Below the pieces are notes generated by a model. The model saw only the letters and a list, made by a program, of their open reading frames with translations, ran no database searches and was not told where the DNA came from. Below are positions 3,077 to 3,877 of a stretch of 47,155 nt of DNA, piece after piece. The stretch is from Promethearchaeota archaeon (GTDB taxonomy: Archaea; Asgardarchaeota; Lokiarchaeia; Sigyniarchaeales; SOKP01): positions 1 through 47,155 of the forward strand of contig JAEOTA010000041.1 in assembly GCA_016840085.1 (NCBI GenBank). The letters run 5' to 3'. Each line of letters opens with the position of its first letter. The stretch's first letter is position 1. A program made the translations under genes and the position numbers.

Positions 3077-3490
3077 ATGATTGATCAACTAAAATCTAAA
3101 CTTGAAGATTTAGAATTAAAAAAGCAAGATATGAAGCCTAAAATCGATGAGATTAATGCTAGGAGAGAAGAAGAACTCCAAGATATAAATAAAAAATATG
3201 ATCACTTGATTTCTGAGATTAGTGTTGAAATAGAAAATTTCGAGAATGAACTTAATAATGAATTAATTCAATCTTTTGAGAATATTGTAATGCAAGAATT
3301 TGATACGAAAAGAAGCACTTCAATGTATTCAATTACGGATGGCTTTAAAGCATATAGGAATTCTATTGCTGAATTTGATTTGTTTCCTAAGGAATTACTT
3401 GACAGATTAGATAAAGTCATAGATGGTGCCCCTATAGATAATCTTGCATATGATCTTGAAAATATTAAAGGGAAATATACAAAATCTTAA
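3077..3490 (+). CDS. Hypothetical protein with N-terminal coiled coil
   Basis: 137-aa ORF with heptad-like K/E/L pattern and a TATA-like TTTAAATA about 25-30 nt upstream. Confidence 0.7.
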   Translation: MIDQLKSKLEDLELKKQDMKPKIDEINARREEELQDINKKYDHLISEISVEIENFENELNNELIQSFENIVMQEFDTKRSTSMYSITDGFKAYRNSIAEFDLFPKELLDRLDKVIDGAPIDNLAYDLENIKGKYTKS

Positions 3491-3564
3491 AATTTTAACC
3501 TTTTTATTAAATTTTTGCTGATAAAAGATAGTGGCAATTTTATTTTAAATAGAATATTATAAAC

Positions 3565-3653
3565 TTAGGATATTCGAATATGATGATAATTGTGGTCTGA
3601 ACAAAAGTTTAAGTTTTGATGTTGGAGCAGAGATCTGATTTCGAATATCCTAA
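3565..3653 (+). ncRNA. Box C/D methylation-guide sRNA
   Basis: Perfect 14-bp terminal stem TTAGGATATTCGAA (3565-3578)/TTCGAATATCCTAA (3640-3653); box C ATGATGA 3580-3586; D' CTGA 3597-3600; C' TTGATGT 3616-3622; D CTGA 3635-3638; intergenic. Confidence 0.85.
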
Positions 3654-3733
3654 ATAATATCTCAATATTACACTGATACATATGTTGTAATGAATCTCTT
3701 GGAATATAGGAAAATATAAGAGGTAACAATAAA

Positions 3734-3877
3734 ATGGAACTTTTCGAAGAAGAAGTTGAGATATATAATTCTAAACTAAGAAACTTGTCTTGGCTTTATG
3801 ATGAGCTAAAGCTCCAACCTGATGACATGAAAAATGTAATTAATGAAAAAGGGCAAAAATTACCTCTTAATCTTTAA
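3734..3877 (+). CDS. Putative 47-aa small protein (MELFEEEVEIYNSKLRNLSWLYDELKLQPDDMKNVINEKGQKLPLNL)
   Basis: ATG preceded by GAGGT, protein-like composition, below the ORF-track cutoff. Confidence 0.45.
   Translation: MELFEEEVEIYNSKLRNLSWLYDELKLQPDDMKNVINEKGQKLPLNL

Follow-up and report, generated by a model that had tools for sequence, protein, structure and literature searches.

A patchily distributed box C/D sRNA gene in a Lokiarchaeia genus and its predicted pairing with helix 28 of 16S rRNA

The window, i.e. the whole stretch of 47,155 nucleotides that was analysed, comes from the genome (4.68 Mb) of a Promethearchaeota archaeon belonging to a Lokiarchaeia genus. Between a 137-aa ORF that ends at 3490 and a conserved 47-aa ORF that starts at 3734 lies an intergenic candidate box C/D element, which is present as a single copy in the host genome. 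Every box, guide and stem arm described for this element in the initial annotation was found in its place (Table 1). In at least 14 congeners the 47-aa ORF (3734-3877, + strand) recurs at 70-82% identity, sharing its start and stop and varying synonymously, and a conserved motif is located upstream of it at about 3651-3730. A box-like motif within this ORF (3793-3851) varies synonymously and was dismissed.

Table 1. Features of the box C/D element and its upstream region; 16S positions follow E. coli numbering
Feature	Position	Strand	Remark
TATA-like box (putative promoter)	3538-3545	+	5-mer conserved among homologs
-10 TATAA-like element (putative)	3558-3562	+	same position in 11 of 15 homologs
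Terminal stem, 5' arm	3565-3578	+	conserved part 3568-3578
Predicted transcription start	about 3567-3568	+	at the 5' arm of the stem
Box C (AUGAUGA)	3580-3586	+	invariant in 15 of 15 homologs
D' guide, 10 nt	3587-3596	+	invariant core 3591-3595 complementary to 16S 933-937
N+5 base of D' guide	G3592	+	faces C936 by sequence pairing; 7 bp in host
Box D' (CUGA)	3597-3600	+	AUGA, UUGA, UUAA, CUAA in homologs
D'-C' spacer, 15 nt	3601-3615	+	short variable hairpin; up to 25 nt in homologs
Box C' (degenerate)	3616-3622	+	
D guide, 12 nt	3623-3634	+	3624-3634 pair with 16S 1379-1389
N+5 base of D guide	G3630	+	faces C1383; A3631 faces order-specific U1382
Box D (CUGA)	3635-3638	+	invariant in 15 of 15 homologs
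Terminal stem, 3' arm	3640-3653	+	conserved part 3640-3650

The 121-nt region folds with a z-score of -3.57, and none of 200 shuffled sequences was as stable. Among all candidates with a box C followed by a box D in the 4.68-Mb genome, the closing stem of 14 Watson-Crick pairs is by far the longest, the next best having 8 bp; in three block-shuffled genomes, which served as the control for this genome-wide scan, the closing stem never exceeded 6 bp. The perfect 14-bp stem noted initially is present in the host, but only its inner 11 bp are conserved: these are retained in 14-15 of the 15 homologs, whereas the three outermost pairs are seen in 5, 10 and 4 of them. The layout is that of an archaeal C/D RNA, with boxes C and D brought side by side by the terminal stem, boxes D' and C' in order, a compact core of 59 nt, and guides of 10 and 12 nt. 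No Rfam family was matched at the gathering threshold; generic C/D-box models gave weak matches only (E 1.5-9).

Searches by DNA similarity, by pattern and by covariance model showed intact copies in 15 of the 54 genomes of the genus; among the remainder, one genome contains a relic of the 3' half and 38 are without the element. Metagenomes yield four further copies. The remaining 81 genomes of the family gave no copy, nor did a pattern search of 400 Asgard genomes, and no homolog was found in the cultured Promethearchaeum and Lokiarchaeum. Outside the genus strict pattern scans, including one across GTDB, gave nothing with both the boxes and the stem. Weak model matches in two genomes (G088, where the match lies inside an ORF, and G081) were attributed to chance. 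The D guide is identical in 13 homologs and carries one mismatch in the other two, and the D' guide retains its five-base core, while C', D' and the internal spacer drift. The initial annotation had held that conserved flanks around unconserved boxes would speak against a guide RNA; the reverse was observed, with guides and boxes conserved while spacer and flanks drift. Stem covariation with conserved boxes, which it had proposed to seek in related genomes, was also found. Compensatory changes occur at three of the inner 11 stem pairs, and the covariation score of 0.239 was reached by 2 of 500 shuffles. The homologs are kin from about four lineages, so that covariation and shuffle statistics overstate the case, but the slid controls, 26-47% paired as against 87% for the true stem, agree with them. 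The host genome encodes fibrillarin and, adjoining it, a single Nop5, its only Nop-domain gene, as well as L7Ae. The original assignment to the box C/D guide RNAs of an Asgard archaeon is supported by the conserved sequence and covarying stem, by a target in rRNA and by the presence of the core proteins, and as predicted from sequence the element is almost certainly a real box C/D sRNA gene.

The gene sits in four unrelated gene neighbourhoods. The site that it occupies in the host is empty in the ten relatives measured, and is about 95 nt shorter in nine. In a Nop5 gene tree of 50 genomes (a single marker with a midpoint root and weak deep branches), the four contexts fall in separate groups that are interleaved with non-carriers, and therefore repeated loss or transfer is needed. 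The patchiness does not reflect sensitivity only, since a like search recovers another C/D RNA from most congeners; incomplete assemblies may hide some copies. A MITE-like mobile or decaying element that merely resembles a C/D RNA would also carry a terminal inverted repeat, occupy several contexts, leave syntenic sites empty and appear patchy on the Nop5 tree, and C/D-like MITEs exist in Pyrobaculum (PMC6009581). However, there is one copy per genome, in contrast to the multicopy repeat that the initial annotation had named as refuting its reading, and no target-site duplication abuts the ends. The G-U pairs kept in the stem function only on the + strand, and together with the conservation of guides and boxes beside a drifting spacer and flanks, and the fit of the D guide to rRNA, they count against a mobile element, which is very improbable. 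Gene mobility and genus-limited long-range guides have been described for Pyrobaculum (PMC6009581). The relic (G085 contig C14, L043 about 1490-1530) has C', the D guide, box D and the 3' arm intact and has lost the 5' half; its gene neighbourhood is the one in which G099 has its intact copy.

In 14 of the 15 homologs a 5-mer of the form TTTA(T/A) or TATA(T/A) precedes the conserved stem by 28-31 nt, and it is found in three of the four genomic contexts, within an AT-rich background. The constant spacing of this TATA-like box from the stem suggests that transcription starts at the stem and that the RNA is not trimmed from a host transcript. A scan for sigma-70 promoters and terminators was uninformative for an archaeal host. 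The length of 89 nt had earlier been taken to indicate a precursor of the eukaryotic type. This view is not supported: the stem is counted in the 89 nt, the C-to-D core measures 59 nt (59-69 nt in homologs) where archaeal C/D cores are typically about 60 nt (PMC7229835), the guides are 10 and 12 nt long, Nop5 is single, and the TATA-like box predicts a promoter of its own. What may remain of the resemblance to eukaryotes is the unevenness of the guides, one being strong and the second providing a short conserved pairing, together with the degenerate C'/D'. The sRNAs of Methanococcus maripaludis, verified by RNA-seq, have long D'-C' spacers and terminal stems of about 5-7 bp, as read by eye from the supplement of Dennis et al. 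(2015) (PMC4644070). Of these, sR101-sR107 offer a likeness in their mesophilic, AT-rich host, the small number of sRNAs, their 5-7 bp stems and their hairpin spacers, but no stem reaches 11 bp and the guides are unrelated. The 11-bp stem is longer than these, and than the 4-9 bp of a second C/D RNA of the genus, and differs from them in degree only.

The second box C/D sRNA (L349; G000 contig C85, 8985-9047, + strand) has matches in about 45 of the 54 congeners, and its stem measures 4-9 bp. The D guide of this RNA forms eight Watson-Crick pairs and one G-U pair with the P-loop of 23S rRNA, at the position equivalent to E. coli G2251, and its D' guide is conserved with no clear target. Two weaker C/D-like candidates were also noted in G000: L350 (contig C24, 105959-105903, - strand) with a 7-bp stem, and L351 (contig C88, 45996-45936, - strand) with a 5-bp stem.

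The rRNA of the host is not assembled, and targets were therefore read from the 16S and 23S of congeners. The D guide pairs with 16S 1379-1389 (E. coli numbering) through ten Watson-Crick pairs and one G-U pair, which adjoins the box. At -20.3 kcal/mol this is the best duplex in 16S and 23S; runs of at least 10 Watson-Crick pairs arise with 9 of 400 shuffled guides. The duplex is longer than the 8 bp asked of a guide to rRNA or tRNA, and its N+5 pair is Watson-Crick. Every one of the 50 matched genomes from this order has U at position 1382, where the three from other orders and the seven archaea examined by Dennis et al. have C; the D guide carries an A that fits this U. Carriers G024, G100 and G111 contain the matching 16S site. 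A 16S with C1382 on contig C18 of G100 was set aside as mis-binned, the other copy in this genome having U; the 16S of this contig is 79% and its 23S 66% identical to congeners, and it is probably mis-binned. In G111, the 16S and 23S genes on contig C1 are about 52 kb apart, and ARAGORN calls a tRNA-Sec (L340) on contig C15 at about 137830-137920. By the N+5 rule, the methylation site of the D guide is very probably C1383, a residue of the 3' strand of helix 28.

Two other targets were weighed for the D guide. The tRNA-Trp anticodon loop suggested by the initial annotation has no support: recovered tRNAs, among which there was no reliable tRNA-Trp gene, form at most six Watson-Crick pairs with the guide as against ten plus one G-U in 16S, and on tRNA-Trp the N+5 rule would point to position 29 instead of 32 or 34. 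The other is an aldehyde:ferredoxin oxidoreductase gene, identified by Pfam (contig C60, L064 6305-8143), in which exact 12-nt and 10-nt matches to the two guides stand 8 nt apart in the order of a double guide (G000 C60, 67582-67611), an arrangement with a chance estimate of about 7e-5 for the host genome. These matches, however, are on the coding strand, so that the guides cannot bind the mRNA and would have to target the template strand or an antisense RNA. In addition, the best such genes in nine other carriers have one to four differences from the D guide and none to five from their own D' guide; the differences are synonymous, are about as many as in non-carriers, and do not covary with the guides. 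The double match was judged a coincidence on account of its strand and its lack of conservation in homologous genes, and a target in this gene is hardly credible.

In the 16S and 23S of G111, the invariant core of the D' guide has a single complementary site, at 16S 933-937. Positions 928-933 of the Loki 16S are complementary to 1384-1389, the pairing of helix 28, and over part of its length the D guide has the sequence of the natural 5' strand of this helix. The D and D' sites would therefore lie on opposite sides of a single helix, with about 450 nt between them, as in a long-range arrangement. The duplex has 7 bp in the host and 5-6 bp in most homologs, with a Watson-Crick G-C pair at N+5 in all 15. 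Shuffled guides often reach 7 bp, so that the D' duplex is not significant when considered alone, and rival sites exist. In terms of mean energy, the T-stem of tRNA-Gln (the best, at -8.6) and a G-U-rich 16S site are slightly better than the 933-938 site (-7.7), and a 23S hairpin pairs 8-10 nt with the D' guide of nine of the 15 homologs.

A comparable arrangement is known from Nanoarchaeum equitans sR17, in which the D guide is directed to the 3' strand of helix 28 and the D' guide to the 5' side, and which was proposed to act as a folding chaperone (Dennis et al. 2015, PMC4644070). Pyrobaculum sR56 likewise has its D guide on the 3' strand and its D' guide on the 5' side. The guide cores of sR17 are near-identical to those of the Asgard RNA (GGAGCAG for D and UUGUG for D'), with the same assignment to D and D'. 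There are several differences, however. By our own mapping of the sR17 sequences to E. coli positions, sR17 predicts about U1384 and A933, whereas the Asgard RNA predicts C1383 and C936; each guide of sR17 forms about 9-10 bp, as against 5-7 bp at D' in the Asgard RNA; and sR17 combines good C'/D' boxes and a 5-nt internal spacer with hardly any terminal stem, whereas the Asgard RNA has degenerate C'/D' and a conserved stem of 11 bp. Strict patterns showed no homolog that would link the two RNAs in 400 Asgard genomes or in the GTDB-wide scan, and therefore convergence with sR17 appears more likely than descent.

Taken with this precedent, the D' core probably pairs with 16S 933-938. It is less likely, indeed rather improbable, that the RNA is a C/D sRNA with a single rRNA guide, in which D methylates C1383 and the D' core is kept for another reason or another RNA, such as the 23S hairpin (near 749 of the G111 23S match) or the tRNA-Gln T-stem. 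The 23S site is invariant in eight congeneric 23S genes, pairs 10/10 with the D' variant that occurs most often and would account for the A that never varies at guide position 8, and the tRNA-Gln site has the energy advantage given above. But pairing with the 23S site puts a G-U at an invariant position and, for the host guide, a U-U mismatch, and this site is outside the top ten over all D' variants, and the tRNA-Gln site is mismatched at position 7 in ten of the 15 homologs. Neither site is near the D target, and the example of sR17 favours 16S.

Pairing of D' with 16S does not imply methylation. The initial annotation predicted a Cm from both guides; this holds for the D side, at C1383, but on the D' side the 5-7 bp (7 bp here) fall below the guide pairing threshold of 8 bp given by Lui et al. 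(PMC6009581), and the D' guide is therefore more likely an anchor than a methylation guide. Methylation of C936 from the D' side is accordingly doubtful. A full double guide with methylation at C1383 as well as C936, exactly as in sR17, would agree with that precedent, with the invariant G-C pair at N+5 and with the perfect D' box and seven contiguous pairs of the host; apart from the short duplex, it is opposed by a spacing of 10 nt instead of the usual 12 (PMC7229835) and by the degeneration of box D' in 12 of the 15 homologs, and it is quite unlikely.

The following model of an anchored C1383 guide is considered reasonably likely on the basis of these sequence comparisons. An archaeal box C/D sRNA of about 85 nt may be transcribed independently and would bind L7Ae, Nop5 and fibrillarin, as is usual in the family and as the presence of the genes allows. 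The long stem may stabilise the C/D kink-turn in an AU-rich RNA. The D guide would pair with nascent 16S rRNA at 1379-1389, on the 3' strand of helix 28, and direct 2'-O-methylation of C1383 by the N+5 rule; since part of the guide copies the 5' strand of this helix, it must bind before the helix closes or displace it. The invariant D' core would pair with 933-937/938 beside the 5' strand, about 450 nt away, and serve mainly as an anchor, so that the RNP might keep the two ends of the small-subunit head domain together until it is released, a role already suggested for N. equitans sR17. The gene appears to be dispensable and may have moved between loci together with its promoter. Because 38 of the 54 congeners are without the gene and yet share the target, any chaperone role is not essential.

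A more specific possibility, which is tentative and on balance unlikely, is an RNP that is asymmetric in the eukaryotic manner, in which only the D guide is catalytic and D' is a short conserved, non-methylating anchor on the far strand of helix 28, the RNA acting mainly as a folding chaperone of the ribosomal neck. In eukaryotic snoRNAs, extra base-pairing of 4-11 bp occurs near the target (van Nues et al. 2011, PMC3116282). The Asgard RNA resembles such snoRNAs in having a strong guide with a short conserved element and divergent C'/D'. It differs from them since its second site lies about 450 nt from the first and is near it in the folded rRNA only, the D' register is canonical, the host has a single Nop5 instead of Nop56/Nop58, and the gene has an apparent promoter of its own. 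If true, the asymmetric reading would provide an archaeal case of extra base-pairing, between the symmetric double guides of archaea and eukaryotic snoRNAs.

C/D-like boxes with two short guides are also a property of the tigRNAs of TIGR-Tas systems and of the bridge RNA of IS110 (PMC11213020). Unlike these, the Asgard RNA forms no array and has no Nop-domain effector beside the gene, and its D guide fits rRNA.

In the literature searched, the coverage of which is incomplete, no description of an individual Asgard C/D sRNA or its target was found. The known roles of C/D RNAs are left unchanged by the present finding, and the claim of a eukaryote-like precursor is not borne out; the RNA is of an ordinary archaeal guide type and provides a concrete Asgard example. 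Carriers and non-carriers of the gene share the same target and thus offer a natural comparison. A guide that bridges helix 28 in a mesophile, with an apparently independent origin, would support the chaperone idea of Dennis et al.
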